Source: a virus
Taxonomy: Duplodnaviria; Heunggongvirae; Uroviricota; Caudoviricetes
Virus record (IMG/VR): IMGVR_UViG_2703718824_000010
Location: 1 to 9,732 of that record
Length of the DNA: 9,732 nt
Direction: 5' to 3' (one strand)
The notes below the pieces were generated by a model that did not search any database, was not told the DNA's origin, and saw nothing but the letters and a program-made list of their open reading frames with translations. The translations under genes were made by a program, and so were the position numbers. Each line of letters opens with the position of its first letter. Position 1 is the stretch's first letter. Below, piece by piece: positions 1 through 9,732 of this stretch.

Positions 1-1
1 G

Positions 2-94
2 CAGCGGTCGGCAGGCGCTAAGGCAGAACTGGCACTGGCGGAGAAACTGGGGCATGCAGTTATTTTCCAGGAGGCAACCAGTGAGTGGGATTAA
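2..94 (+). CDS. 3' end of an upstream gene (partial, start outside window); unknown function
   Basis: Frame 2 is open from the window edge to TAA at 92..94. It competes with the 5' end of the next ORF, so only one of the two readings is real here. Confidence 0.3.
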   Translation, partial: QRSAGAKAELALAEKLGHAVIFQEATSEWD

Positions 95-425
95 TTATCA
101 GGCGCTGCGTGAGGCGGCACAAAACTATCAGTCGATGCTGGCGTGGTATCAGGAGAAACCAGACAGTCCAAACGCTGAGCAGGATTGTGATGCAGCTTTG
201 GCTGCGTTTAAGTGTGAAATCCGTCATCGTGAAGTGGATATTATCGCTGATTTGCTGGATGAACTGGAGGAAGCAAAACAGCGTATCGACGAGCAGGAGT
301 CCCGCATAGTGAAGTTACCAGAACCATTCAAGCTGGCTAAATCATCAAGTGGATTAACGTACTACTACGCTGATGAGGTCAATGCCGCACTGACTGCTGC
401 TGGTATTCGCATAGAAGGAGAGTGA
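54..425 (+). CDS. hypothetical phage nin-region protein (123 aa; alternative GTG start at 81)
   Basis: ORF with ATG at 54 preceded by GGAGA (40..44). An alternative GTG at 81 is preceded by a better AGGAGG (69..74, 6-nt spacer). Stop TGA 423..425 sits directly before the next gene's start. No family recognised by eye. Confidence 0.6.
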   Translation: MQLFSRRQPVSGINYQALREAAQNYQSMLAWYQEKPDSPNAEQDCDAALAAFKCEIRHREVDIIADLLDELEEAKQRIDEQESRIVKLPEPFKLAKSSSGLTYYYADEVNAALTAAGIRIEGE

Positions 426-426
426 G

Positions 427-795
427 ATGACCACTATTACCAAAGAGCGACTGCAATGGCTGGCTAACATTTCTGGCCGCGATGACATTGACGATATAGA
501 CGGCGGTGAAATTCGTGAGCTGGCGCTTATCGCACTGGCATCGCTGGAAGCAGAGCCAGTGGCAAAGATTATAGCTCATTACCCATTAGGAGTTGACGTA
601 GGCAAACAAAAGTTCGTACAGGCCATTGGAGAGCTTCCTGACTTTGGCGGATATCTATTTGCCGTCCCGCCAGCGCTGGTAGTGCCTGATAAGTCGCCGC
701 GTGAATACATAAGAGGTTGGCCTCTTGCGCATAGTGATTATGCTGAAGGATGGAACGATTGCCGTGCTGCAATGCTTAATGGAGATAAATCATGA
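427..795 (+). CDS. hypothetical phage protein (122 aa)
   Basis: ATG 427 follows the upstream stop by 1 nt and is preceded by AAGGAG (415..420). Acidic N-terminal region. The stop overlaps the next start (ATGA at 792..795). Confidence 0.7.
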   Translation: MTTITKERLQWLANISGRDDIDDIDGGEIRELALIALASLEAEPVAKIIAHYPLGVDVGKQKFVQAIGELPDFGGYLFAVPPALVVPDKSPREYIRGWPLAHSDYAEGWNDCRAAMLNGDKS

Positions 796-1145
796 TTGAT
801 CGAACCAAACTGGAGCACATCCTCGAATATGCCAGGCAGCAGAGGCATATTGGTCAGCATTGTAAAATTCCACCAGGAGATATGGTTGAAATCATGGAGA
901 TTGCCATGTGCAAGGCTGGCAATTCTCCGGTAACTCCGGATGGTTGGATAAGCTGTAGTGAGCGAATGCCGCCAGTTGGTGTTGATGTACAACTGTTTGT
1001 GTCCAGCACGGGGGAACAGTTTACAGGTTTTAACCTGGATAATACGGGTGACTTCCAGTATGCGCAGTGTTTCGGTGCGCCTATCGTGTGTGAAGCCACA
1101 CACTGGATGCCGCTACCAGAACCGCCGAAGGAGGTGCGCCAATGA
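792..1145 (+). CDS. DUF551-like phage protein (117 aa)
   Basis: ATG 792 overlaps the upstream stop, with GGAGA at 782..786. The C-terminal THWMPLPEPPK matches my recollection of DUF551 prophage proteins; this is recalled, not searched. Confidence 0.65.
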   Translation: MIDRTKLEHILEYARQQRHIGQHCKIPPGDMVEIMEIAMCKAGNSPVTPDGWISCSERMPPVGVDVQLFVSSTGEQFTGFNLDNTGDFQYAQCFGAPIVCEATHWMPLPEPPKEVRQ

Positions 1146-1225
1146 GCTGGCCTGAGGCCTTCTCAAATGTTGGTATTGCAATGGCGGTGGCGCTGGTGGT
1201 GTATTCGATTTGCCGCTGGGGATAA
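1142..1225 (+). CDS. small hydrophobic peptide, 27 aa (MSWPEAFSNVGIAMAVALVVYSICRWG), putative single-pass membrane peptide
   Basis: Strong SD AAGGAGG (1128..1134), 7-nt spacer, ATG 1142 overlapping the upstream TGA (ATGA coupling). Hydrophobic core consistent with one transmembrane helix. Below the 60-aa cutoff of the ORF track. Confidence 0.45.
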   Translation: MSWPEAFSNVGIAMAVALVVYSICRWG

Positions 1226-1317
1226 AAACGGTTTGCGGGGAAAGAAGAGTTAAGTAGAATTGCTGCGGGTGCTTGAGGCTGTCTGCCTCGGGCATGCCGC
1301 CGTAAGGCAGACAGAGA

Positions 1318-1395
1318 AAAGCCCCAGTTAACATTACGCGTCTTGCAGGACGCTTAACATTAATCTGAGGCCCAATCTATGCTTCACAAACGTAG
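1318..1395 (-). ncRNA. candidate Sok-like antisense RNA opposite the mok start region
   Basis: Minus strand has a possible promoter (TTGCCT, 17 nt, TAACCT) right of the mok start and an imperfect hairpin followed by a U-run (GGGGCUUUUCUCUG) ending near 1320. Placed by analogy to hok/sok; boundaries approximate. Confidence 0.3.
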
Positions 1396-1591
1396 GTTAG
1401 CCTCTTACGTGCCGAAAGGCAAGGAGAAGCAGGCTATGAAGCAGCAAAAGGCGATGTTAATCGCCCTGATCGTCATCTGTATTACCGTTGTTGTGACGGC
1501 ACTGGTAACGAGGAAAGACCTCTGCGAGGTACGAATCCGAACCGGCCAGACGGAGGTTGCTGTCTTCGTAGACTACGAATCTGAGAAGTAA
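1379..1591 (+). CDS. Mok-like in-frame N-terminal extension of hok (70 aa)
   Basis: ATG 1379 is in frame with hok and adds 19 codons (MLHKRRLASYVPKGKEKQA), the arrangement recalled for chromosomal mok/hok pairs. Weak SD CTGAGG upstream. Confidence 0.45.
   Translation: MLHKRRLASYVPKGKEKQAMKQQKAMLIALIVICITVVVTALVTRKDLCEVRIRTGQTEVAVFVDYESEK
1436..1591 (+). CDS. hok: Hok/Gef family type I toxin (51 aa membrane peptide)
   Basis: MKQQKAMLIALIVICITVVVTALVTRKDLCEVRIRTGQTEVAVFVDYESEK: transmembrane segment followed by the TRKDLCEV.IRTGQTEVA motif characteristic of Hok/Gef/RelF. SD AAGGAGAAG (1421..1429) before ATG 1436. Confidence 0.85.
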   Translation: MKQQKAMLIALIVICITVVVTALVTRKDLCEVRIRTGQTEVAVFVDYESEK

Positions 1592-1600
1592 GAGTGACCA

Positions 1601-1622
1601 GGCGAGGGAGAAATCCCTCGCC
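1601..1622 (+). other. 9-bp stem-loop just 3' of hok (GGCGAGGGA / GAAA / TCCCTCGCC), possible mRNA 3'-end fold-back element
   Basis: Perfect 9-bp inverted repeat with a 4-nt loop, 10 nt after the hok stop. No U-run follows, so it looks more like a stabilising or fbi-like element than a classical terminator. Confidence 0.45.
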
Positions 1623-1712
1623 ACCTCTGATGTGTCAGGCATCCTCAACGCACCCGCGCTTTACCATACTGAAAATGCTGTTTGAATGTTCATTTCTGAA
1701 AGAGGACTATGA

Positions 1713-2057
1713 ATGAAAAAGGTATTGATTGCAGCACTTATTTCCGGTGTGTCTTTTGGCGTTTTTGCACAGCAGGGTGGTTTCCAGGGGCCTGAAGCAG
1801 AGCGTTCAACAGTAGCGCAGGCAAAAGAACTGAAGGATGATGCATGGGTTATCCTTGAAGGGAGCATCATTAAAAAAGTGGGTGATGAACGTTATGAGTT
1901 TCGTGACAATAGCGGGACAATTGTCACGGATATTGATGACAGCGTATGGGCCGGGCAGAATGTTTCTCCGAAAGACAAAGTAAGAATTGAGGGTGAAATT
2001 GATAAAGACCTGAGCAGTGTTGAAGTTGATGTAAAGGCACTGAAATTATTAAAGTAA
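1713..2057 (+). CDS. YgiW/YdeI (BOF, DUF388) family OB-fold periplasmic protein with signal peptide
   Basis: SD AAGAGGA before ATG 1713. N-terminal signal peptide MKKVLIAALISGVSFGVFAQQ. The mature part (GFQGP...AWVILEGSIIKKVGDERYEFRDNSGTI.V.ID...V.IEGE.D) matches the YgiW-family pattern. An intrinsic terminator follows. Confidence 0.85.
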   Translation: MKKVLIAALISGVSFGVFAQQGGFQGPEAERSTVAQAKELKDDAWVILEGSIIKKVGDERYEFRDNSGTIVTDIDDSVWAGQNVSPKDKVRIEGEIDKDLSSVEVDVKALKLLK

Positions 2058-2075
2058 CCGTCCCGGCTTGCTAAG

Positions 2076-2102
2076 CCCGTCTTACTGACGGGTTTTCTGT
2101 TT
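2076..2102 (+). terminator. rho-independent terminator after the ygiW-like gene
   Basis: CCCGTC / TTACT / GACGGG stem-loop followed by TTTTCTGTTT. Confidence 0.6.
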
Positions 2103-2179
2103 GTACATTCCAGGCGTATTGACTTACAATTCGCGCCGTCAGCCTGAACAACTGACACCTGCTGTCACCGGAGAATCCG

Positions 2180-2452
2180 ATGACACAACACATAAAATCC
2201 CACAATTCTGAAGCCGACCCGGAAATTAAGCGGGGGTGGCGTTTTCGTACGCCTCAGTATGGCTGGTTTCACTATCTGTTCTGTACGACCGATGAGGCAG
2301 ATATGCTTCAAGAGGCGTATCTGCGTCGCGGTGTCCGTGTGGAGCGGAGTCTGAACGTTGATCGTCTGACCTGGACCGTTTCTGTATATCTTCCTGTTCG
2401 CGCACATCTGCCACGAACAAATGCCTGCTACCGTCAGCGTGTCTGGAGATAA
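2180..2452 (+). CDS. hypothetical phage protein (90 aa)
   Basis: GGAGA (2170..2174), 5-nt spacer, ATG 2180. Stop TAA 2450..2452 abuts the next gene's GTG at 2454. No family recognised. Confidence 0.55.
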   Translation: MTQHIKSHNSEADPEIKRGWRFRTPQYGWFHYLFCTTDEADMLQEAYLRRGVRVERSLNVDRLTWTVSVYLPVRAHLPRTNACYRQRVWR

Positions 2453-2453
2453 T

Positions 2454-3503
2454 GTGCGGGTATTACTTCGACCTGTTCTGGTCCCGGAACTTGGCCTGGT
2501 GGTCATTAAGCCAGGTCGCGAATTACTGCCGGTTTTTCATCGCGGCAGGGTGCTGGTGGAGCCGGAACCCAAAAGCATGCGGAGTTTGCCGTCCGGGGTT
2601 GTTCCTGTCGTTTGCCAGCCGCTGGCTGAGGATAAATCATTACTGCCATTTTTCAGCAATGAACGGGTGATTCGTGCCGCTGGCGGTGCTGGTGCGCTGT
2701 CTGACTGGTTATTACGTCACGTGAAATCCTGCCAGTGGCCACATGGCGATTATCATCACAGCGAAACCGTCATTCACCGTTATGGTACCGGCGCGATGGT
2801 GTTGTGCTGGCACTGTGACAACCAGCTGCGCGACCAGACATCAGAATCACTCGATCAACTTGCTCAGCAGAATCTGGTTGCCTGGATGATTGACGTCATC
2901 CGTCATGCAATAAGCGGTACGCAGGAGAGGGAGTTATCGCTGGCCGAATTATCCTGGTGGGCGGCCTGCAATCAGGTGGTGGATGCATTACCTGAGGCAG
3001 TAGCGCGTCGTTCGCTGGGATTACCAGCGGAAAAAATCCGCTCCGTATACCGTGAGAGTGACATCGTACCGGGAGAACAGACAGCCATCAGCATACTGAA
3101 GCAGCGCACAAAAAATATTGCGCTGCCACTTCACGTCCACCAGCAACAAAATCCACCACAGAAAAAAACGGTTGTCAGTATCGCTGTTGATCCGGAGTCT
3201 CCTGAATCGTTCATGAAGCGGCCTAAACGTCGCCGTTGGGTTAATGAGAAATACACGCGCTGGGTAAAGACACAGCCGTGTGCGTGTTGTGGTAAGCCTG
3301 CTGACGATCCGCATCACCTGATTGGTCATGGTCAGGGGGGAATGGGGACAAAGGCCCACGATATTTTCACGCTACCGTTGTGCCGGGAACATCACAACGA
3401 ACTTCATGCAGACCCGCTGGAGTTTGAGAAAAAGTACGGCTCTCAGGTTGAGTTAATTTTTCGTTTTCTTGATCACGCCTTTGCAACCGGCGTGCTTGGG
3501 TAA
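2454..3503 (+). CDS. DUF968 / NinG-like prophage protein with C-terminal HNH-type Cys/His motif (349 aa from GTG 2454; the ORF track's ATG 2421 would overlap the upstream gene)
   Basis: Long ORF whose C-terminus carries CACCGKP..DPHHLIGHG.......C.EHHNELH, a zinc/HNH-like signature. GTG 2454 is preceded by GGAGA (2444..2448) and starts 2 nt after the upstream stop. Resemblance to Qin-prophage YdfU-type proteins is recalled, not searched. Confidence 0.7.
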   Translation: MRVLLRPVLVPELGLVVIKPGRELLPVFHRGRVLVEPEPKSMRSLPSGVVPVVCQPLAEDKSLLPFFSNERVIRAAGGAGALSDWLLRHVKSCQWPHGDYHHSETVIHRYGTGAMVLCWHCDNQLRDQTSESLDQLAQQNLVAWMIDVIRHAISGTQERELSLAELSWWAACNQVVDALPEAVARRSLGLPAEKIRSVYRESDIVPGEQTAISILKQRTKNIALPLHVHQQQNPPQKKTVVSIAVDPESPESFMKRPKRRRWVNEKYTRWVKTQPCACCGKPADDPHHLIGHGQGGMGTKAHDIFTLPLCREHHNELHADPLEFEKKYGSQVELIFRFLDHAFATGVLG

Positions 3504-3515
3504 AAGAGGTTACTG

Positions 3516-3878
3516 ATGCGTATAGAGTTTGTTTTGCCTTATCCGCCGACGGTGAATACTTACTGGCGACGTCGTGGCAGCACATATTTTATATCTGAGG
3601 AGGGAAAGTGCTATCGCCGGGCAGTGGCGCTTATTGTTCGCCAGCAGCGGCTGAAATTAAGCCTGTCCGGAAGGCTGGCGATAAAGGTGATTGCAGAGCC
3701 ACCGGATAAGCGCCGCCGTGACCTGGATAATATCCTGAAAGCGCCGCTGGATGCGCTGACGCATGCAGGGTTGTTAATGGACGATGAGCAGTTTGATGAA
3801 ATCAATATTGTACGTGGCCAGCCAGTATCTGGTGGACGGCTGGAGATAAGAATTACAGAGGTGGGTGTGCATGAATAA
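3516..3878 (+). CDS. rusA: RusA Holliday-junction resolvase (120 aa)
   Basis: AAGAGG before ATG 3516. The size and the motifs PPT.N.YW....G, DKRRRDLDNILKAPLDALTHAG.L.DD and GGRLEI.ITE match RusA, including the catalytic acidic-residue region. Confidence 0.9.
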   Translation: MRIEFVLPYPPTVNTYWRRRGSTYFISEEGKCYRRAVALIVRQQRLKLSLSGRLAIKVIAEPPDKRRRDLDNILKAPLDALTHAGLLMDDEQFDEINIVRGQPVSGGRLEIRITEVGVHE

Positions 3879-4560
3879 CCAGTATTTACAGTTTGTTCGT
3901 GAGCAACTCATGATTGCCACTGCGGATCTCAGTGTGTCGATAAAAGGCCAACTGGAAGCCTGGCAGGAAAATGCACTGTTCGATACAGGGCGTTACAGAC
4001 GCAAAAAAATTCGTTACCGCGATGAGGTAACCGGAAAAATGATCACGCGGGATAACCCACCGATCCCGGGTAAACAATCACTGGCGAAAGGGACGTCAAT
4101 TGCTCTGGTCAGTCCGGTTGAGTTTTCGACATCATCATGGCGACGTGCAGTTCTGGAACTGGAAGCGCATCAGAAGGCGTGGTTGTTGTGGTGTTACGGC
4201 GGAAACATTTGCTGGGAGTATCAGATTGCGATAACGCAGTGGGCGTGGAATGAATTTAATACTCAATCCGGTACCAGAAAAATAGCTGGGAAAACGCTGG
4301 AACGTCTGAAGAAGTTGATCTGGCTGGCGGCGCAAGCGGTAAAAGCTGAGCTTTTTGGTGGGGAAGGTTATGAATACCGGGATCTGGCATCACTGGTGGG
4401 AGTGACATCAAAAAACTGGTCTGAGACATTTACTGAACGCTGGGTTGCAATGAAGCACATTTTTCTACAGCTTGATAGCCAAGCTTTATTGCTTTTAACG
4501 AAAACACGTTCAAAACAAAAGACCACATTTTCACAGCAAAATATTGCAAAACTGGATTAA
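3865..4560 (+). CDS. putative late-gene antiterminator Q-like protein (231 aa; possible start at ATG 3871)
   Basis: Assigned mainly by position: immediately after rusA, and its 3' end overlaps a strong sigma70 promoter followed by a nearby terminator, the pR'/tR' arrangement. No Q zinc-finger motif could be confirmed by eye, so the family is uncertain. Confidence 0.5.
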   Translation: MCMNNQYLQFVREQLMIATADLSVSIKGQLEAWQENALFDTGRYRRKKIRYRDEVTGKMITRDNPPIPGKQSLAKGTSIALVSPVEFSTSSWRRAVLELEAHQKAWLLWCYGGNICWEYQIAITQWAWNEFNTQSGTRKIAGKTLERLKKLIWLAAQAVKAELFGGEGYEYRDLASLVGVTSKNWSETFTERWVAMKHIFLQLDSQALLLLTKTRSKQKTTFSQQNIAKLD

Positions 4561-4572
4561 AAAGCATATATT
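4544..4572 (+). promoter_or_regulatory. candidate late promoter pR' (-35 TTGCAA, 17-nt spacer, -10 TATATT)
   Basis: Near-consensus sigma70 hexamers with ideal spacing overlap the stop of the Q-like gene. The predicted start near 4579 would give a roughly 70-nt transcript ending at the terminator at 4623..4649. Confidence 0.5.
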
Positions 4573-4622
4573 TCATGTAAATCTGATATTTTGCCGATTT
4601 TGTACGCGATGGCAAAGTAAGC

Positions 4623-4649
4623 AAACCCCGCCGCCGAGCGGGTTTTTTT
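4623..4649 (+). terminator. rho-independent terminator (tR'-like)
   Basis: AAACCCCGC / CGCCGA / GCGGG followed by seven T residues. Confidence 0.7.
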
Positions 4650-4753
4650 GTTGGCTTAACAGGTTATAATGTACAGTGCGAAACTGCCTGTTCAGCAGAA
4701 TCATTTTGTTTGTAGTGGAGTTCACAAGTCGTCATTATCAGGCAAAGAGATTT

Positions 4754-5155
4754 ATGGTGTTAAAGTATCAGCCGTCTGTTCGTTCTGTTTTAATGTGTGA
4801 TTTTCGGGGAATGGTTGTTCCGGAAATAGTCAAGGTCAGGCCAGTGGTAGTCGTGTCCAGAAACAGACACAACAATCAATTGGTAACAGTGGTACCAATA
4901 AGCACTACTGAACCGATTCCTCGCAGAGATTGCCATCATGAGTTATCAGAAAACCCCATCCCTGGTAATGAGCATATTACTTGTTGGGTAAAATGTGACA
5001 TGTTGATGACGGTTTCATTGAGCCGACTGGATCGCATAAAAACTAGAACCTGGGAGGGGCGAAATTATATTGTTCCTATGATTGCGGAAGATGAGTTTGA
5101 GAATATTAAACGGGCGGTATTGCACGGGATAGGGATGGCTTATCTGTATCGATAA
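4754..5155 (+). CDS. MazF/PemK/Kid-fold protein, putative endoribonuclease toxin (133 aa), with no adjacent antitoxin gene
   Basis: AAAGAGA before ATG 4754 (the track's longer ORF from 4676 lacks an RBS). VLMCDFRGMVVPEIVKVRPVVVVSRNRHNNQLVTVVPISTTEP follows the PemK/MazF N-terminal pattern (..DF.P..G.E....RP.vVvS ... vvP.T) as recalled. Confidence 0.65.
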   Translation: MVLKYQPSVRSVLMCDFRGMVVPEIVKVRPVVVVSRNRHNNQLVTVVPISTTEPIPRRDCHHELSENPIPGNEHITCWVKCDMLMTVSLSRLDRIKTRTWEGRNYIVPMIAEDEFENIKRAVLHGIGMAYLYR

Positions 5156-5172
5156 TCGAAAACGATTATCGA
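5149..5172. repeat. perfect 10-bp inverted repeat with AAAA spacer (TCGATAATCG aaaa CGATTATCGA), operator-like palindrome overlapping the stop codon
   Basis: Read directly from the sequence. With flanks, four TCGA tetramers lie within about 30 bp. No U-run follows, so it is not a typical terminator. Confidence 0.6.
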
Positions 5173-5190
5173 ATTCGATATGAATTTATA

Positions 5191-5219
5191 TTGACACACA
5201 TAGTGTGTTGACTGATACT
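5191..5219 (+). promoter_or_regulatory. candidate sigma70 promoter (-35 TTGACA, 17-nt spacer, -10 GATACT) with AT-rich upstream flank
   Basis: Consensus -35 and acceptable -10 with an AT-rich UP-like stretch (TATGAATTTATA). It points into a leader carrying an SD and two terminators. Confidence 0.5.
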
Positions 5220-5308
5220 GTCGCTGTACCCTGATGGGACTTGTGAGACTTCCGAACTGGAAGCCAGGAGTAGCAATAAGGTGATGACAAGCCTGCTGCC
5301 CCTGTGTA

Positions 5309-5340
5309 AAAGGCACCTTAATGGTGCCTTTGTCGTTTTT
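5309..5340 (+). terminator. intrinsic terminator 1 in the leader (AAGGCACC / TTAAT / GGTGCCTT + TGTCGTTTTT)
   Basis: 8-bp perfect stem followed by a T-rich tract. Confidence 0.55.
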
Positions 5341-5350
5341 ATCAAAAGAT

Positions 5351-5375
5351 CCCCGCCACTGGCGGGTTTTTTTTT
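5351..5375 (+). terminator. intrinsic terminator 2 in the leader (CCCGCC / ACT / GGCGGG + nine T)
   Basis: GC-rich hairpin followed by nine T residues. The pair forms a tandem terminator about 90-150 nt downstream of the 5191..5219 promoter. Confidence 0.7.
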
Positions 5376-5418
5376 CAAAATATTGGTGTGTCACGTTAAC
5401 CGGAAAAAGGAAAAAGAC

Positions 5419-5616
5419 ATGCTGAAACAGCAGGATATGACAGAAACCGCCAGAGTGGTGTTTAATGAATTAAGTGCCACCGAACCGGCGACAGTCGGGG
5501 AGATTGCGCAGAATACTTATCTTTCACGTGAACGCTGCCAGTTAATACTGACCCAGCTTGTTATGGCGGGTCTGGCAGACTATCAGTTCGGTTGTTACAG
5601 ACGCCTTCAGTCCTGA
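5419..5616 (+). CDS. small winged-helix DNA-binding protein, PapI/FaeA-like (65 aa)
   Basis: ATG 5419 has only a weak AAGGA upstream. TVGEIAQNTYLSRERCQLILTQLVMAGLA resembles the PapI/FaeA recognition-helix region as recalled. The stop lies inside a terminator hairpin. An in-frame upstream GTG/ATG (5281/5284) with strong AGGAG would read through both leader terminators. Confidence 0.6.
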   Translation: MLKQQDMTETARVVFNELSATEPATVGEIAQNTYLSRERCQLILTQLVMAGLADYQFGCYRRLQS

Positions 5617-5628
5617 AGGCTTTTTTAT
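5603..5628 (+). terminator. rho-independent terminator after the small wHTH gene
   Basis: GCCTTCA / GTCC / TGAAGGC followed by TTTTTT. Confidence 0.6.
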
Positions 5629-5766
5629 TTGTGGTAAATGGGCGGCTGGTGGGTGTTAGGGGCACTCACCAGCCATCTGCTCATGCGTCCGGATCACAAG
5701 CAAACCTCAGGCCCACTGCTTTGCGCAAAAGCAGAATGAGCCTATCAGAGACAGGCTTAATGATCC

Positions 5767-6825
5767 ATGCTTAATACTGTAAAAATATCCAGTTGTGAGT
5801 TAATCAACGCCGACTGCCTGGAATTTATCCGGTCGTTACCCGAAAATTCTGTTGACCTGATAGTCACGGACCCGCCGTACTTTAAAGTGAAGCCTGAGGG
5901 CTGGGATAACCAGTGGAAGGGCGACGATGATTACCTGAAGTGGCTGGACCAGTGTCTGGCGCAGTTCTGGCGGGTGCTGAAACCTGCCGGAAGTCTTTAC
6001 CTGTTCTGTGGCCATCGCCTGGCATCTGACATTGAAATCATGATGCGTGAACGCTTCAGTGTGCTGAACCATATTATCTGGGCGAAGCCGTCCGGACGCT
6101 GGAACGGGTGCAACAAGGAAAGCCTGAGGGCGTATTTCCCCGCCACAGAGCGCATTCTGTTCGCGGAACATTATCAGGGGCCGTATCGTCCGAAAGATGC
6201 CGGGTATGAGGCGAAGGGCAGGGCACTGAAACAGCATGTGATGGCCCCGCTGATTGCTTACTTTCGTGATGCACGTGCTGCCCTGGGGATAACGGCAAAA
6301 CAGATTGCTGATGCCACAGGAAAGAAAAACATGGTGTCGCACTGGTTCAGTGCCAGTCAGTGGCAGCTACCGGACGAAAGCGATTATCTGAAATTACAGG
6401 CGCTGTTTGCCCGGGTGGCAGAAGAGAAGCATCAGCGCGGAGAACTGGAAAAGCCACATCACCAACTGGTCAGCACATACAGTGAACTGAACCGACACTA
6501 TACGGAACTGCAGAGTGAATATAAGCATCTGCGGCGGTATTTCGGTGTGACGGCGCAGGTGCCGTACACCGATGTGTGGACGCATAAACCGGTGCAGTAC
6601 TATCCCGGGAAACATCCGTGCGAAAAACCGGCAGAAATGCTGCAGCAGATAATCAGCGCGAGCAGTCGTCCGGGTGACCTGGTTGCAGATTTTTTCATGG
6701 GGTCGGGTTCGACAGTCAAAGCAGCGATGGCGCTGGGGCGTCGTGCAACTGGCGTTGAGCTGGAGACTGAACGTTTTGAGCAGACGGTCAGGGAAGTTCA
6801 GGATTTAGCCAGTCAGAACGGATGA
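5767..6825 (+). CDS. beta-class DNA N6-adenine/N4-cytosine methyltransferase (352 aa), phage Dam-like orphan methylase
   Basis: Motif IV DPPY near the N-terminus (LIVTDPPYF) and motif I FxGxG near the C-terminus (DFFMGSGSTVKAA), the beta-class order typical of the N6_N4_Mtase family. ATG 5767 is the first start after an in-frame TGA. Confidence 0.9.
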   Translation: MLNTVKISSCELINADCLEFIRSLPENSVDLIVTDPPYFKVKPEGWDNQWKGDDDYLKWLDQCLAQFWRVLKPAGSLYLFCGHRLASDIEIMMRERFSVLNHIIWAKPSGRWNGCNKESLRAYFPATERILFAEHYQGPYRPKDAGYEAKGRALKQHVMAPLIAYFRDARAALGITAKQIADATGKKNMVSHWFSASQWQLPDESDYLKLQALFARVAEEKHQRGELEKPHHQLVSTYSELNRHYTELQSEYKHLRRYFGVTAQVPYTDVWTHKPVQYYPGKHPCEKPAEMLQQIISASSRPGDLVADFFMGSGSTVKAAMALGRRATGVELETERFEQTVREVQDLASQNG

Positions 6826-6865
6826 TATTGCAGGATTAGTTACGTACCGTTATTATCCTGCGCCC

Positions 6866-6941
6866 GGCCCTTTAGCTCAGTGGTGAGAGCGAGCGACTCA
6901 TAATCGCCAGGTCGCTGGTTCAAATCCAGCAAGGGCCACCA
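6866..6941 (+). tRNA. tRNA with anticodon CAU (Met, or Ile2 if lysidine-modified; ileZ-like in Stx phages)
   Basis: Hand-folded cloverleaf: acceptor GGCCCTT/AAGGGCC, D-arm GCTC..GAGC, anticodon loop CTCATAA, T-arm GCTGG-TTCAAAT-CCAGC, encoded 3' CCA. Confidence 0.9.
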
Positions 6942-6948
6942 TCACATA

Positions 6949-7025
6949 CCGCCATTAGCTCATCGGGATAGAGCGCCAGCCTTCGAAGCTGGTTGCGCGG
7001 GGTTCGAGTCCTCGATGGCGGTCCA
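6949..7025 (+). tRNA. tRNA-Arg (anticodon UCG)
   Basis: Acceptor CCGCCAT/ATGGCGG, anticodon stem CCAGC/GCTGG with loop CTTCGAA, T-loop TTCGAGT, encoded CCA. Confidence 0.85.
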
Positions 7026-7038
7026 TTATCTGTACACT

Positions 7039-7115
7039 GCGTTGTTAGCTCAGCCGGACAGAGCAATTGCCTTCTAAGCAATCGGTCACTGGTTCGAATC
7101 CAGTACAACGCACCA
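7039..7115 (+). tRNA. tRNA-Arg (anticodon UCU)
   Basis: Acceptor GCGTTGT/ACAACGC, anticodon stem ATTGC/GCAAT with loop CTTCTAA, T-arm ACTGG-TTCGAAT-CCAGT, encoded CCA. Confidence 0.9.
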
Positions 7116-7200
7116 CACTTATTTTTCCTGGCTCGCTTTTGTGGGCCTTTTTTGCCTCCGCGCCACGCCCGGCGCATATCAACCACAGAGCCTTTCACAA

Positions 7201-8136
7201 ATGGTTTTTCAGGAGTCCAATAATCGCGATGTCGCCAGAAAATACGCAGAGTACATCACGTCCGTTCCTTTGCGTCGGTTTGTCGCTGAAAAAGTGCGGG
7301 AATATTGTGGTGATCTGCCCCTGAGTATTTTTGATGGTGCGTGTGGCTCCGGGCAACTGGAGCAGTTTCTCACGGTGGGAAGTCTGTATGCTGTGGATAT
7401 ACAGGCCTCTCCGTTGTTGCATATCCCGGATAATTTCCCGGATGCCACAGTGAAGACGGTCAATGAAAATTTCTTCAACGCCATCGATGATGTCAGTGAC
7501 ACGGACACGTTCGATTGTGTCATCATGAATCCGCCTTTTTCGCTACAGTACAAAGCACAGAGCGCGGATATCAGGGAGAAGATTTCAGCGATGATGCCTT
7601 ATAAAAAGACCTCCGGTGTTCTGGATGACGCGTTTTATGTTCTGGCGAGCATGAAGGCAAGATTTTCATTTTTTTTGTGCTTTCCCGGGGTTGGTTACAG
7701 GCGTGGTGAGCTGGCAATGCGTCAGTATTTTGGCAACCGCGTTGTTGAGTTGGTTCAGATTTCAGGCGGGTTCGCTGATACATCGGTTTCTGTATTATTC
7801 GTCATTATTGATAACGAAAAGCAAAGCGATGATGTTGTTGTTTATGGCGTCGGGTTTAATGGGGAAACTTGCAAAAAGTCAGCGCCGGTGACGGAGAAGA
7901 TTAACACAGACAACTGGAACAGGCCGTACATTGCTGAAGAGAAGGAGGTCATTGACATTGTACAGGTGACGGCTGAGTTGCTTGTAAGGCAAACAAGAAG
8001 ACGGAAACTTGAAGATGAGCATAACGCCTTTGTGTGGTCCTTAATGAGTGATGATCAGCGGACGGAGGTTTCCCGTTTTCTGTCAGTGCACGGTTTGTTT
8101 TTTGATGCCGGTTCAGGTTGTGTGCACATACGTTAA
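7201..8136 (+). CDS. gamma-order SAM-dependent N6-adenine methyltransferase-like protein (311 aa from ATG 7201; the track's ORF opens at GTG 7141, too close to the tRNA)
   Basis: Motif I FDGACGSGQLEQF (like HsdM DPACGSGGFL) lies upstream of motif IV DCVIMNPPF, the gamma-class order. No signal peptide and no Stx-like features. No obvious SD before 7201. It is short for a DNA methyltransferase with a full target-recognition domain. Confidence 0.7.
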   Translation: MVFQESNNRDVARKYAEYITSVPLRRFVAEKVREYCGDLPLSIFDGACGSGQLEQFLTVGSLYAVDIQASPLLHIPDNFPDATVKTVNENFFNAIDDVSDTDTFDCVIMNPPFSLQYKAQSADIREKISAMMPYKKTSGVLDDAFYVLASMKARFSFFLCFPGVGYRRGELAMRQYFGNRVVELVQISGGFADTSVSVLFVIIDNEKQSDDVVVYGVGFNGETCKKSAPVTEKINTDNWNRPYIAEEKEVIDIVQVTAELLVRQTRRRKLEDEHNAFVWSLMSDDQRTEVSRFLSVHGLFFDAGSGCVHIR

Positions 8137-8200
8137 ATCTGGTGCCGGTCGCTGGTTGCCGGTGTCGTGATGATTGTCTTCCTGTTGCCCCGAAAATTTT

Positions 8201-8439
8201 AAATGTCTCACAATTCAGACGGTTGACAGTTGTCTGATTTGCGGGGAGTTTGTTAAAAGAAACTGGCATGGTGAATCCCCCTGAGCGGAGGGGCATATCA
8301 GCGACAGGTGTTTGGTTACATCCCTTATCCTTTCTGTGCGGGTTCAGGTGCTGATACTGAACTCACCGGGAGGCACCCGGCACCATGCGCATGATGATAC
8401 AGATACGCAGCGTCAGCCCCTCTCCGGAGGGGCTTTTCT
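8201..8439 (+). repeat. structured non-coding module, copy A (candidate sRNA gene): conserved 5' box, two hairpins, intrinsic terminator
   Basis: Shares ordered blocks with copy B: CTCACAATTCAG, TTTGTTAAAA (extended -10-like), hairpin CCCCT-GAGCGG-AGGGG (8276..8294), CTGAACTCACCGGGAGGCACCCGGCA (hairpin 8366..8380), and terminator AGCCCCTC/TCCG/GAGGGGCT+TTTCT (8415..8439). Candidate ORFs inside are not conserved between copies. Confidence 0.5.
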
Positions 8440-8512
8440 GTGCCGGATACATCACAGTTTCTGGAACCTTGGGTACTACAGTATCAGTCAGGGTGCTATA
8501 TTTTCAGATGTG

Positions 8513-8614
8513 ATGAAAGCCTGTCAGCAGGCAGGGCGTATCGGAAATGACCCAGTAGAGAAAACGTTGACTCAGATACCGGTGCTGAGTTACCGGGAAA
8601 CCGGCATCACATGA
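8513..8614 (+). CDS. possible 33-codon small ORF (MKACQQAGRIGNDPVEKTLTQIPVLSYRETGIT), speculative
   Basis: Extended -10 TGcTATATT at 8494..8502 just upstream and a terminator just downstream, but no SD. The longer 100-aa track ORF (8312..8614) runs through the copy A hairpins and terminator and is rejected. Confidence 0.2.
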   Translation: MKACQQAGRIGNDPVEKTLTQIPVLSYRETGIT

Positions 8615-8628
8615 CCGCTATCCTTCCA

Positions 8629-8656
8629 GGCCCGTCCGCTCCGGTGGGCCTTTTTA
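8629..8656 (+). terminator. intrinsic terminator (GGCCCGTCCG / CTC / CGGTGGGCC + TTTTT)
   Basis: GC-rich imperfect stem followed by five T residues. Confidence 0.5.
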
Positions 8657-8679
8657 CTGCAGAAAACAGGTTCCCCGTT

Positions 8680-8929
8680 AAATGCTATGTTGCTCACAAT
8701 TCAGTCAGTTGAAGGTTGTCTTCCCGACTGAGAATTTGTTAAAAAATTTCTGCATGATGAATCCCCCTGTGCGGAGGGGCGGCTGGTGTACGGAATGGTC
8801 TCTGATGATCGTTAGCGAGAATGACGCGGGTTCGGTGGCACCGGGCTGAACTCACCGGGAGGCACCCGGCATCATGTAATGAACGGTACATAGCGCTACT
8901 CTTCAGCCCCTCTCCGGAGGGGCTTTCTT
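8680..8929 (+). repeat. structured non-coding module, copy B (candidate sRNA gene), paralogous to copy A
   Basis: Same block order as copy A: CTCACAATTCAG, TTTGTTAAAA, hairpin CCCCT-GTGCGG-AGGGG (8764..8780), CTGAACTCACCGGGAGGCACCCGGCA (8849..8870), terminator AGCCCCTC/TCCG/GAGGGGCT+TTCTT (8905..8929). The stretches between blocks have diverged. Confidence 0.5.
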
Positions 8930-8933
8930 ATGG

Positions 8934-8964
8934 ATAAAAAAAGCCCGCATGGTGAGATGCGGGC
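8934..8964 (-). terminator. hairpin GCCCGCAT / GGTGAG / ATGCGGGC preceded by an A-run on +, i.e. a minus-strand intrinsic terminator (or insulator)
   Basis: 8-bp perfect stem. The + strand has AAAAAAA upstream and no T-run downstream, so it would terminate leftward minus-strand transcription. Confidence 0.4.
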
Positions 8965-9161
8965 AGCAAGGAATAAACAACAAAACGTGAAGTAATCAAT
9001 TTTTCAGCTGGAGAATAATACCCGACAGTAATCACTCTGCGCAACTGCGCGGCCTTTTTCGTATTGCGGGCTGTAGTCTTCCTCCTGCCATTGTCCTGTA
9101 ACTTCCGGACTTCAGCCCGCCCCTCATCTGACTCACAACATTATCCCGACCGGGAGGATTC

Positions 9162-9732
9162 ATGGCATTTAAACACTATGACGTGGTCAGGGCGGCGTCG
9201 CCGTCAGACCTTGCGGAGCGACTGACTCAAAAACTGAAGGAGGGGTGGCAGCCATTTGGCAGTCCTGTCGCCATCACGCCTTATACCCTGATGCAGGCCA
9301 TTGCGGCGGAAGGTGATGTCACCACACCTGTGTTAGTGAAGCCGTCGGCTGGAGAAGGCACAGTAATCAGCGCCACCAGAGACCCGGAGTATTACTTTGT
9401 TGTGGTTCTGGCGGGGCAGTCAAACAGCATGGCATATGGTGAAGGCCTTCCGCTGCCGGAGACATATGACCGTCCGGACCCGCGTATTAAGCAGCTGGCG
9501 CGCCGCAGTACAGTGACACCGGGTGGTGCCGCCTGTAAGTATAACGACATTATTCCGGCGGACTATTGTCTGCATGATGTGCAGGACATGAGCCGTCTTA
9601 ACCATCCGAAAGCGGACCTGTCAAAGGGGCAGTACGGAACCGTGGGGCAGGGGCTGCATATCGCCAAAAAACTGCTGCCGTTTATACCGGCGAATGCGGG
9701 TATTTTGCTGGTTCCGTGCTGCCGTGGTGCTT
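9162..9732 (+). CDS. nanS-p: NanS-p-like sialate O-acetylesterase (N-terminal DUF1737 plus start of SGNH/SASA domain); partial, continues past the window
   Basis: GGGAGG (9152..9157) before ATG 9162. The N-terminus MAFKHYDVVRAASPSDLAERLTQKLKEGWQPFGSPVAITPY matches the DUF1737 start of Stx-prophage NanS-p/YjhS-like esterases as recalled. A GQSN block (SGNH block I) follows. Open to the window edge. Confidence 0.8.
   Translation, partial: MAFKHYDVVRAASPSDLAERLTQKLKEGWQPFGSPVAITPYTLMQAIAAEGDVTTPVLVKPSAGEGTVISATRDPEYYFVVVLAGQSNSMAYGEGLPLPETYDRPDPRIKQLARRSTVTPGGAACKYNDIIPADYCLHDVQDMSRLNHPKADLSKGQYGTVGQGLHIAKKLLPFIPANAGILLVPCCRGA

Follow-up and report, generated by a model that had tools for sequence, protein, structure and literature searches.

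A predicted small RNA gene, conserved beside YifN-type MazF-fold genes, in the late-operon leader of a lambdoid Escherichia coli prophage

The 9,732-nucleotide (nt) stretch of DNA analysed here in full, hereafter the window, covers positions 1-9,732 of the IMG/VR virus record IMGVR_UViG_2703718824_000010 and reads as a lambdoid, Shiga toxin (Stx) phage-like Escherichia coli prophage without stx. The segment that interests us (5191-5375) lies between a gene for a YifN-type protein with a MazF fold and a gene for a winged helix-turn-helix (wHTH) protein. It is very probably a self-contained small RNA (sRNA) gene, rather than a leader from which translation proceeds into the wHTH gene. Its RNA belongs to a family that Rfam 15 does not contain and that, in the loci compared, appears as a near-obligate neighbour of YifN-type genes. 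With good confidence it can be taken as the functional partner of the YifN-type protein, and the explanation that we favour overall, with some reserve, is that of an sRNA partner counteracting a MazF-like toxin. Coordinates are those of the window and features lie on its plus strand unless stated otherwise.

The promoter, the structured region and the terminators of this gene are far beyond chance, because they are conserved, with covariation, across the Proteobacteria. The gene opens with a sigma-70 promoter (5191-5219; TTGACA, a 17-nt spacer and GATACT, 10 of 12 matches in the promoter scan), from which transcription is predicted to start near 5226. The core of ~115 nt (5226-5340), supported by minimum free energy (MFE) folding, an RNAalifold consensus and covariation, contains helices P1 (5229-5231 with 5236-5238), P2 (5249-5253 with 5259-5263), P3 (5265-5274 with 5295-5304) and P4 (5280-5282 with 5291-5293), followed by a terminator, T1 (hairpin 5310-5330, or 5309-5331 in the terminator scan, with the tail UUUGUCGUUUUU to 5340). 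A conserved linker, ACUUGUGAGAC (5239-5249), lies between P1 and P2, and an apical loop, GAUGACAA (5283-5290), closes P4. The 5' strand of P3 holds an AGGAG (5266-5270), the loop includes an ATG (5284), and a GTG (5281) covers the last P4 pairs and the first base of the loop. A second, stronger terminator, T2 (5352-5375; hairpin 5352-5366 with a 6-bp G+C stem, then nine U at 5367-5375), would produce a 150-nt isoform, so that the gene is predicted to give RNAs of ~115 and ~150 nt, ending at 5340 and 5375. T2 is present in the E. coli relatives, with an equivalent 3' of T1 in Atlantibacter, and would be a further block to late-operon read-through. The MFE of the single sequence is -57.4 kcal/mol (z = -4.4), and the scan counted 8 terminator-like sites in the region against 1.3 expected.

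The promoter keeps the same layout across the family: TTGAC(A/T), 16-17 nt, (G/A/T)A(T/G/A)A(C/A)T, then 6-7 nt before position 1 of the RNA model. It scores 9-11 of 12 in E. coli, Enterobacter, Klebsiella, Atlantibacter, Xenorhabdus, Arsenophonus, Geobacter and Photorhabdus, and is weaker in Pseudomonas (7 of 12). All 13 checked copies with a YifN-type gene upstream have it; among the five checked without such a gene it is found in one, from Photorhabdus.

The fold was evaluated on alignments of increasing breadth. Thirteen distinct variants were aligned with MAFFT; the RNAalifold consensus comprised three helices, and the terminator stem was added by hand (loop alignment). In these 13 sequences 95.5% of the cells are paired and 7 of the 29 pairs show compensatory change. 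The corresponding figures are 95.9% and 20 of 29 for 21 sequences, and 94.5% and 28 of 29 for 39 sequences, although it weighs against the reading that these last two were built by fitting to the covariance model, lean towards the structure and inflate the percentage paired. Controls with slid partners were 38-54% paired (38-53% for the 39 sequences), and none of 500 shuffles reached the observed pairing or compensatory counts in any of the three alignments. P3 illustrates the pattern, with GUAGCA/UGCUGC in the window, GCGGCA/UGCCGC in contig L016 and ACAAUA/UAUUGU in Photorhabdus. AGGAG is replaced in Photorhabdus, Symbiopectobacterium and E. coli strain A34 with the pairing of the helix retained, and a 1-nt deletion in the group of strain S19-651 only drops a bulged C from P3. 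The most conserved parts of the RNA among 39 diverse members are two near-invariant single-stranded motifs, ACUUGUGAGAC and GGUGAUGACAAGCC, the latter at the tip of the P3/P4 hairpin, spanning the GTG and ATG and invariant in the 13 aligned variants; the conserved linker, as CUUGUGAGAC, and the loop GAUGACAA are the elements concerned. A pseudoknot between CUUGU of the linker and ACAAG of the loop was considered and set aside: the motifs barely vary and, by eye, the changes in the GCUUAAGUCC/GAUUGCAAUCC clade are not compensatory, which leaves it unsupported either way.

A preliminary description of this DNA had proposed that ribosomes starting at GTG 5281 or ATG 5284, behind AGGAG, would translate through both hairpins and melt them, in a translation-coupled attenuator that makes long and short wHTH isoforms or controls read-through into the methylase gene downstream. 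The elements on which this proposal was built are all there: the AGGAG and the two start codons, the open frame (5281-5616, 111 amino acids) which passes both terminators and enters the wHTH gene (...PPLAGFFFKILVCHVNRKKEKD-MLKQ...), and the two terminator-like hairpins upstream of that gene, confirmed by the scan (5309-5331; 5352-5366 with T9). The equivalent 65-codon frame is moreover annotated as a 'hypothetical protein' by the Prokaryotic Genome Annotation Pipeline (PGAP) in strain 2012EL-2448, and an in-frame fusion (137 amino acids) exists in a second contig, L015, albeit an independent and different one. Nevertheless, the upstream frame appears to be accidental, and in phase with the wHTH gene only through a recent loss of 79 nt in this lineage. 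In 2012EL-2448, otherwise identical here, those 79 nt sit between the T-run and the wHTH leader (window junction 5375/5376, no strand assigned), and the upstream frame stops at 65 codons, before the wHTH start. The deletion, bounded by two similar short sequences (GGCGGGTTTTTTT and GCTGGCTTTTTT), is the reason for the in-frame joint. All the best matches among complete E. coli genomes carry the 79 extra nt, while the contiguous joint of the window occurs in 0 of 5,426 such genomes and its exact junction has no match among the viral contigs searched. The open frame is no longer than chance would yield, the probability of 46 stop-free codons being ~0.1 by our arithmetic.

The comparison of homologues leads in the same direction. 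Counted from the equivalent GTG across 17 of them, the frame has 111 codons in the window, 137 in L015 and 65, 39, 33, 26, 25, 20 or 12 in most others; in the S19-651 group, where the 1-nt deletion shifts the frame, it has 46, and such a frameshift is tolerated. The sequence of the frame varies as well, the AUG is AUU in Geobacter, and the 46-amino-acid extension matches no PHROG family. The AGGAG is variable, is paired within a covarying helix and lies 10 nt from the GTG and 13 nt from the ATG, long spacings for a Shine-Dalgarno sequence. Instead of mutually exclusive terminator and antiterminator structures there is one set of four covarying helices plus terminators, with no alternative pairing to the terminator arms predicted or conserved. 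Nor is there a fixed downstream gene, the neighbours being wHTH, holin, tRNA, helix-turn-helix (HTH), SRAP or baseplate genes. As to the isoforms, the wHTH module has its own Shine-Dalgarno sequence and ATG (5419), is common to >2,000 E. coli genomes, where it is joined to other upstream sequences, and is homologous only from 5381. As to the methylase gene, a third terminator (5603-5626) still intervenes, and the prophage already has a Q antiterminator, whose read-through of terminators makes a translation-coupled device unnecessary. An attenuator that yields a 111-amino-acid isoform or tunes read-through is for these reasons highly improbable. What stands is the alternative mentioned in the same description, a stand-alone sRNA of ~110-150 nt running from the promoter at 5191 to 5340 or 5375: its near-consensus promoter is conserved in position, and an sRNA has been detected at the yifN locus of E. 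coli K-12 (see below).

The conserved AUG might also open a short peptide (MTSLL...), in which case the transcript would be dual-function or purely coding. The AUG is present in every homologue seen except that of Geobacter (AUU), MTSLL recurs in most enteric copies, and its five codons lie in the conserved loop and stem. Yet the sequences diverge past codon 5, frame length varies between 12 and 137 codons, no Shine-Dalgarno sequence is conserved, and substitutions obey base-pairing rather than codon rules, as when CUG becomes CCG with a matching change on the opposite strand of the helix. A coding role of this kind is hardly credible. The upstream frame is a false gene which pipelines have already called, whereas the sRNA gene itself is unannotated. 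In 2012EL-2448 (L001 5142-5339) the 65-amino-acid 'hypothetical protein' WP_134790173.1 is annotated by RefSeq across the sRNA, with a start that looks spurious, and in strain C5 (L005 2692-3612) the annotated start of a 306-amino-acid 'HTH domain protein', inside terminator T1, looks spurious too.

The association of the RNA with YifN-type genes was studied using two covariance models, a first one (R1) and a broader second one (R2), which describe the motifs CUUG(U/C)(G/A)AGAC and GAU(G)ACAAGC, helices P1-P4 and the terminator. The window scores 144.5 bits with R1 and 117.4 bits with R2, matches obtained by construction as it is a seed member; independent family members score 20-130 bits. Eighteen loci were fetched for eight homologous proteins, from Enterobacter, Xenorhabdus, Arsenophonus, Klebsiella, Atlantibacter, Pseudomonas and Geobacter. 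All 18 give a match to the covariance model on the same strand as the gene, 15-80 nt past its stop (70 nt separate the stop from the RNA start in the window). These loci are diverse: those of Enterobacter follow a PF03589 Q gene or, in one case, have Mu-like surroundings with Mor and GemA, those of Xenorhabdus and Arsenophonus lie behind a PF06530 Q gene, and those of Atlantibacter and Pseudomonas (53% protein identity) occupy chromosomal sites. The locus of Geobacter sulfurreducens, with 49% protein identity, still gives an RNA match with E=6e-8, although the E-values of the covariance models are rough owing to a shortened calibration, which weighs against leaning on them.

In a viral sample of 80 contigs encoding YifN relatives (36-100% identity), R1 finds the RNA adjacent to the gene in 53, and R2 in 27 of the 31 viral loci searched with it, four already matched by R1. 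Of the four left over, three give a match once the filters are switched off, one of these being weak (E=0.03), which brings the total to 78-79 of the 80 contigs. The RNA lies upstream of the gene in five loci (L215, L218, L220, L221 and L235) and on the opposite strand, in convergent orientation, in two (L237 and L239), an arrangement that argues for a trans-acting partner rather than an element of the 3' untranslated region (UTR). The link is looser when searched from the RNA side, where 71 metagenome loci had the RNA motif and enough upstream sequence: a YifN-type open reading frame (ORF) is directly upstream in 45 and absent from 26. The RNA also occurs alone in five genome contexts. Thus, the YifN-type gene is almost never alone and the RNA often is, which is the pattern expected of an antitoxin. 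Many of the 26 loci without YifN follow genes that by eye resemble HigA-type antitoxin genes, others apparent LysR-type or transposase genes; Pseudomonas-type copies (L074, L087, L107, L108, L120, L132 and others) come after a putative HigA-type 'addiction module antidote' gene or truncated versions of it. The HigA-like neighbours suggest a toxin-antitoxin hot spot or an exchange between modules.

Within E. coli, part or all of 5130-5380 is present in 37 of 5,426 genomes, in three kinds of context: with a PemK-type gene upstream, behind the same Q gene and a short terminated leader (S19-651), or behind a different Q gene with a lambda-like late promoter pR' (E9). Pattern scans retrieved diverged copies in the IMG/VR contigs L010, L011 and L016, in Photorhabdus temperata (in a Mu-like tail-gene region), in Symbiopectobacterium and in E. 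coli A34. A first genome-collection pattern gave no match; most matches of a second were chance or coding hits in archaea and marine Gammaproteobacteria (e.g. Neptuniibacter and Marinobacterium) and were rejected, only those of Photorhabdus and Symbiopectobacterium being real. The INPHARED phage genomes had no match to 5140-5385, distant mode included. The A34 copy (L009 2440-2810) is preceded by a Panacea-domain gene and by an ORF without annotation, and a ParDE pair follows it, with a second, partial copy of the terminator motif (ggtaccgtaatggtgcctttgtca) ~200 nt upstream. Rfam 15 had no match over 5191-5375 at gathering thresholds, where sub-threshold isrK, Hrs1 and rpsB matches fall on the terminators only, and none on the homologues or the K-12 locus.

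The YifN-type gene (4754-5155) encodes a protein of 133 amino acids, the presumed toxin. It matches Pfam PemK_toxin (PF02452, E=8e-14) as well as phrog_15698 and phrog_1936, 'MazF-like growth inhibitor', and its homologues are named 'YifN (PemK superfamily)' in the sources; the conserved N-terminus MxLxFQP fixes the start at 4754. An AlphaFold model of the protein (predicted local distance difference test score of 91.8) has only MazF proteins as its top Foldseek matches in the Protein Data Bank (PDB), with template modelling scores of 0.6-0.8 and 14-19% identity. K27, R29, P48 and S50 are invariant among 32 diverse homologues, P30 nearly so, and R29 and S50 would stand where E. coli MazF has its catalytic residues, Arg29 and Thr52. 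The model and these residues point to a soluble MazF-fold protein with candidate catalytic residues and a putative endoribonuclease activity. PADLOC and NCBIfam gave no match for the protein, and PDB sequence searches none for it or for Q. No protein antitoxin was found as a conserved small ORF flanking the gene, either in the 18 loci of the eight homologous proteins, whose neighbours vary by locus, or in the window, where an ORF at 4669-4800 was discarded, as it crosses the edge of the cassette and relatives lack it. The closest relative without the gene, S19-651, lacks the segment ~4713-5198: '...cagcagaatcat' joins 'agagtgttgactgatact...' and the Q/pR' module abuts the RNA region directly.

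The K-12 locus provides a link to published work. An sRNA 'downstream of yifN on the same strand' was detected there by RNA-seq and northern blot in a study that did not place it in a family or describe its structure or function (Romero et al. 2014, PMC4681348). The yifN-ppiC intergenic region of K-12 (L064 2900-3030, minus strand), in which yifN is a pseudogene, shares the layout of the window, with a near-consensus TTGACA-17-GATAAT promoter overlapping the yifN stop, followed after ~6 nt by a short RNA and a terminator. This RNA is probably the unnamed northern-blot sRNA of that study.

How the RNA might act on the protein can be approached from its conserved parts. ACA is the recognition core of E. 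coli MazF, and the loop has ACA in the enteric, Pseudomonas and Geobacter copies. The RNA would then keep a MazF-like endoribonuclease harmless, the conserved ACA-containing loop and the linker binding the protein in the manner of type III systems, and in the E. coli/Enterobacter/Klebsiella clade base-pairing to the 5' UTR of the toxin mRNA would be added. That the RNA is an antitoxin, by whatever route, has about even prospects; that it works by direct binding to the protein, the likeliest of the routes, is a more tentative proposal.

One possible alternative is that a type I-like antisense mechanism is the main mode, the loop and linker pairing with the toxin mRNA 5' UTR so as to block translation or trigger decay. 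The site concerned (4721-4739) ends 14 nt before ATG 4754; there TTCACAAGTC is complementary to ACUUGUGA of the linker, and GTCATTATC to GGUGAUGAC of the loop, with two G-U pairs. Both conserved motifs of the window find matches of 9-10 nt at this site, and at the same place the loop and the UTR of the Enterobacter and Klebsiella-type relatives match perfectly over 11-12 nt, starting 25 nt before the ATG; the U/C differences of the mRNA fall opposite a G of the RNA, and shuffles do as well in 6 of 1000 cases for the window and 10 of 1000 for L011. Nevertheless, these shuffle tests were chosen after the data had been seen, 9-mers with G-U pairs are common in the window, and no comparable match exists in Atlantibacter, Xenorhabdus, Arsenophonus, Pseudomonas or Geobacter, though the RNA motifs are conserved there. 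The absence of the UTR match from five clades favours a direct RNA-protein interaction over antisense as the mode of the family; antisense was rejected as its general mechanism, the complementarity being limited to one clade, and is unlikely to be the main mode. A sliding RNAduplex scan of the window was uninformative, as G+C-rich windows dominate it.

Several observations weigh against the reading of the RNA as the partner of the toxin, among them the restriction of the 5' UTR pairing to one clade. The RNA persists without the toxin gene, and often without a promoter, right behind Q genes (L006, L007 and L037), where it may serve another purpose or simply be a relic. It has no tandem repeats (no repeat array in 4560-5450). 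The K-12 RNA, short, diverged and devoid of the P3/P4 hairpin, shows little similarity (15 bits, E=0.008). Finally, the near-general retention of the loop AUG makes a very short translated frame conceivable.

The position of the pair in the prophage raises a further question, as RNAs are known from the leaders of late operons. A late promoter module of the phage 82 pR'/tR' type was found by sequence reading and the terminator scan at 4545-4648. pR' consists of TTGCAA (4545-4550), a 17-nt spacer and TATATT (4567-4572), with +1 at ~4579; it is followed by a pause region with an extended -10-like element, TGaTATTTT (4584-4592, +6 to +14), GCC (4593-4595, +15 to +17) and a predicted pause at +25 (4603), and by the terminator tR' (4627-4642, T-run to 4648). 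For the 82 pR' the published description (PMC5001585) has GCC at +15-17 and pausing at +25, together with an extended -10-like element, and 4545-4648 fits it. Such a module accompanies this Q type in other phages and would be the real late promoter of this Q. The predicted pR' transcript of ~70 nt (4576-4647) has a full-length, sub-threshold match to Rfam isrJ (21.3 bits, E=0.23). isrJ is a Salmonella Gifsy-1 RNA near a Q-like gene, and 4576-4647 may be a homologous pR' RNA. With an 82-type pR' at 4545, the promoter at 5191 was rejected as the pR' of this Q: it stands 630 nt from Q, behind another gene, and by eye the 25 bases past 5226 (5226-5250) contain no obvious -10-like pause element.

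The toxin/RNA pair reads as a cassette in the late-operon leader, between pR'/tR' and the wHTH-methylase-tRNA module. In Stx prophages pR' fires constitutively and, in lysogeny, termination occurs just downstream (PMC7547250). If the same holds here, pR' transcripts would end at 4648 in the lysogen, and the cassette would yield little toxin mRNA and far more of the RNA from its own strong promoter. Upon induction, Q-modified polymerase from pR' would cross four terminators (4648, 5340, 5375 and 5626) into the late genes. The pair is found behind four kinds of late-gene activator (three Q families and Mu Mor), just before lysis genes or the cargo genes at the stx position. Speculatively, a pair in this placement may contribute to the fitness of the lysogen, exclude superinfecting phages or help to time host shut-off.

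The same placement could mean that the segment merely belongs to the late operon, as its untranslated leader with the tR' terminators (compare lambda 6S RNA and StxS), and is a by-product of Q-controlled transcription unrelated to the toxin. In S19-651, E9 and Symbiopectobacterium the RNA indeed lies directly behind Q genes of different families without a promoter of its own, in E9 after a lambda-like pR' (TTGATT-17-TAAATT, then AACGATGGG), and a short pR' RNA works as an sRNA in Stx phages (PMC7547250). However, the RNA also accompanies YifN-type genes at non-phage chromosomal sites (Pseudomonas, Atlantibacter, Geobacter and K-12) and turns up among tail genes and in a Mu-like phage. In the window, moreover, a separate 82-type pR'/tR' lies 580 nt upstream, and the missing pause element past 5226 also speaks against this explanation, which is altogether improbable.

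The gene order of the window is hok/sok, DUF968, RusA, Q, the PemK/MazF-family gene, wHTH, an N6/N4 methylase, three tRNAs, a second methyltransferase and two STnc100 copies. The hok/sok type I toxin-antitoxin locus (1267-1441; Rfam sok, 117.7 bits; a Hok/Gef family coding sequence is annotated there in the closest genome) gives the prophage a second RNA-controlled toxin. The Q antiterminator gene (3865-4560; PF06323, E=6e-90; phrog_304 'anti-termination protein Q-like'; PGAP homologue 'bacteriophage antitermination protein Q') is context, outside the RNA/toxin cassette. In L011 and L016 the interval from Q to the toxin gene contains sequences that by eye are STnc100-like. A perfect palindrome, TCGATAATCG-AAAA-CGATTATCGA (5149-5172, no strand assigned; 10 bp with a 4-nt loop), overlaps the toxin stop just 5' of the RNA promoter. 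L020 carries its loop in inverted form (TTTT) and L014 has lost half of the palindrome, which could be an operator or a recombination site.

Downstream of the cassette, the wHTH gene (5419-5616, 65 amino acids; Shine-Dalgarno sequence AAGGA at 5406-5410; phrog_331, E=2e-37; a weak TrmB match) is the first of the widespread wHTH-methylase-tRNA module, whose homology starts at 5381, just past the T-run, in Stx2 phages as well as in E. coli genomes. PGAP calls the protein as 65 amino acids from ATG 5419 in every annotated relative fetched. The phrog_331 profile has 111 positions, of which this protein covers 35-98, which points to N-terminal extensions in some phage annotations of the family; the frame 5' of ATG 5419 is open in relatives too, with in-frame TTG and GTG codons at window positions 5383 and 5386. 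The third terminator-like hairpin of the scan (5603-5620, within 5603-5626) separates wHTH from the methylase gene (5767-6825, 352 amino acids), which is intact in the window and annotated as frameshifted (L001 5707-6755) in the otherwise near-identical prophage of 2012EL-2448. The tRNA genes Ile, Arg and Arg (6866-7112) match the ileZ-argN-argO set of Stx phages, and the wHTH-methylase-tRNA block also precedes stx in Stx2 phages and phiP27. The second methyltransferase gene (7141-8136; 'type I R-M subunit M', that is, of restriction-modification, in PGAP) occupies the stxAB position of Stx2 phages, and 3' of it lie two full-length copies of the STnc100 sRNA (8237-8443 and 8723-8935; 134.9 and 164.6 bits).

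Several known systems resemble the one described here in part. IsrK of Salmonella Gifsy-1 (RF01394), a prophage RNA encoded close to the Q region, comes in two forms, one a short terminated sRNA and the other the 5' portion of a longer mRNA made by read-through. Such short/long logic recalls the idea of the preliminary description, but the match is sub-threshold (19.8 bits against a gathering threshold of 50) and confined to the terminators (5313-5372), so the RNA is not a member of that family. Lambda 6S RNA and StxS of the Stx2 phage Sp5 (PMC7547250) likewise lie between Q and the late genes as short RNAs terminated in the lysogen, with terminators overridden by Q, features predicted here from the sequence. 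Unlike them, which start at pR' itself, the RNA of the window has a separate promoter, pR' (4545-4573) having a terminator of its own, and the family also occurs outside phages; no Sakai/Sp5 record is among the 37 E. coli genomes that match the RNA segment. In an incomplete searchable library, no description was found of the RNA, of a function of YifN (beyond the K-12 northern blot) or of MazF-type toxins with RNA partners.

Among toxin-antitoxin systems, type II MazEF and PemIK (Kid-Kis) share the MazF fold, but here there is no MazE/PemI-type gene or other conserved protein-coding neighbour, and the conserved neighbour is an RNA. Type I systems (tisB/istR-1, dinQ/agrB, zor/orz and hok/sok) similarly have an sRNA with a strong promoter of its own beside a toxin gene, and the E. 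coli clade has the short 5' UTR complementarity. Contrary to type I, however, the toxin is a 133-amino-acid protein with an RNase fold and not a small hydrophobic peptide, and the complementarity is not family-wide. There is a parallel in composition with type III (ToxIN, CptIN and TenpIN/AbiQ), in which an endoribonuclease-type toxin, a role predicted here, is accompanied by an adjacent structured RNA and no protein antitoxin. Type III systems are also common on phages and mobile elements, with the RNA upstream of the toxin, as in a few members of the present family. Yet their antitoxins are tandem repeat arrays 5' of the toxin, on the same transcript and with a terminator in between, and we know of no type III antitoxin without such repeats; the present RNA is a single unit of ~115 nt, usually downstream, with its own promoter and no tandem repeats upstream of the gene. 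Moreover, the toxin belongs by sequence to the MazF/PemK superfamily, outside the ToxN, CptN and TenpN families.

In the lack of repeats, of a small peptide toxin and of a protein antitoxin, the pair fails a defining feature of types III, I and II respectively. It is possible, if somewhat short of an even chance, that the YifN-type protein and its single-copy sRNA represent a previously unrecognised toxin-antitoxin class, or a phage-borne defence or exclusion module, in which the RNA probably acts as a pseudo-substrate via the ACA loop. In that case, the module would be widespread in Proteobacteria and recur at the head of temperate-phage late operons. Some MazF/PemK-type toxins, such as yifN, are 'orphans' without a known antidote, which such a module would explain: the covarying RNA found beside nearly every YifN-type gene, from E. 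coli to Geobacter, is a candidate for it. Compared with the repeat arrays of type III, this would be a new RNA-antitoxin architecture, single-copy, usually downstream of the toxin gene and separately transcribed.

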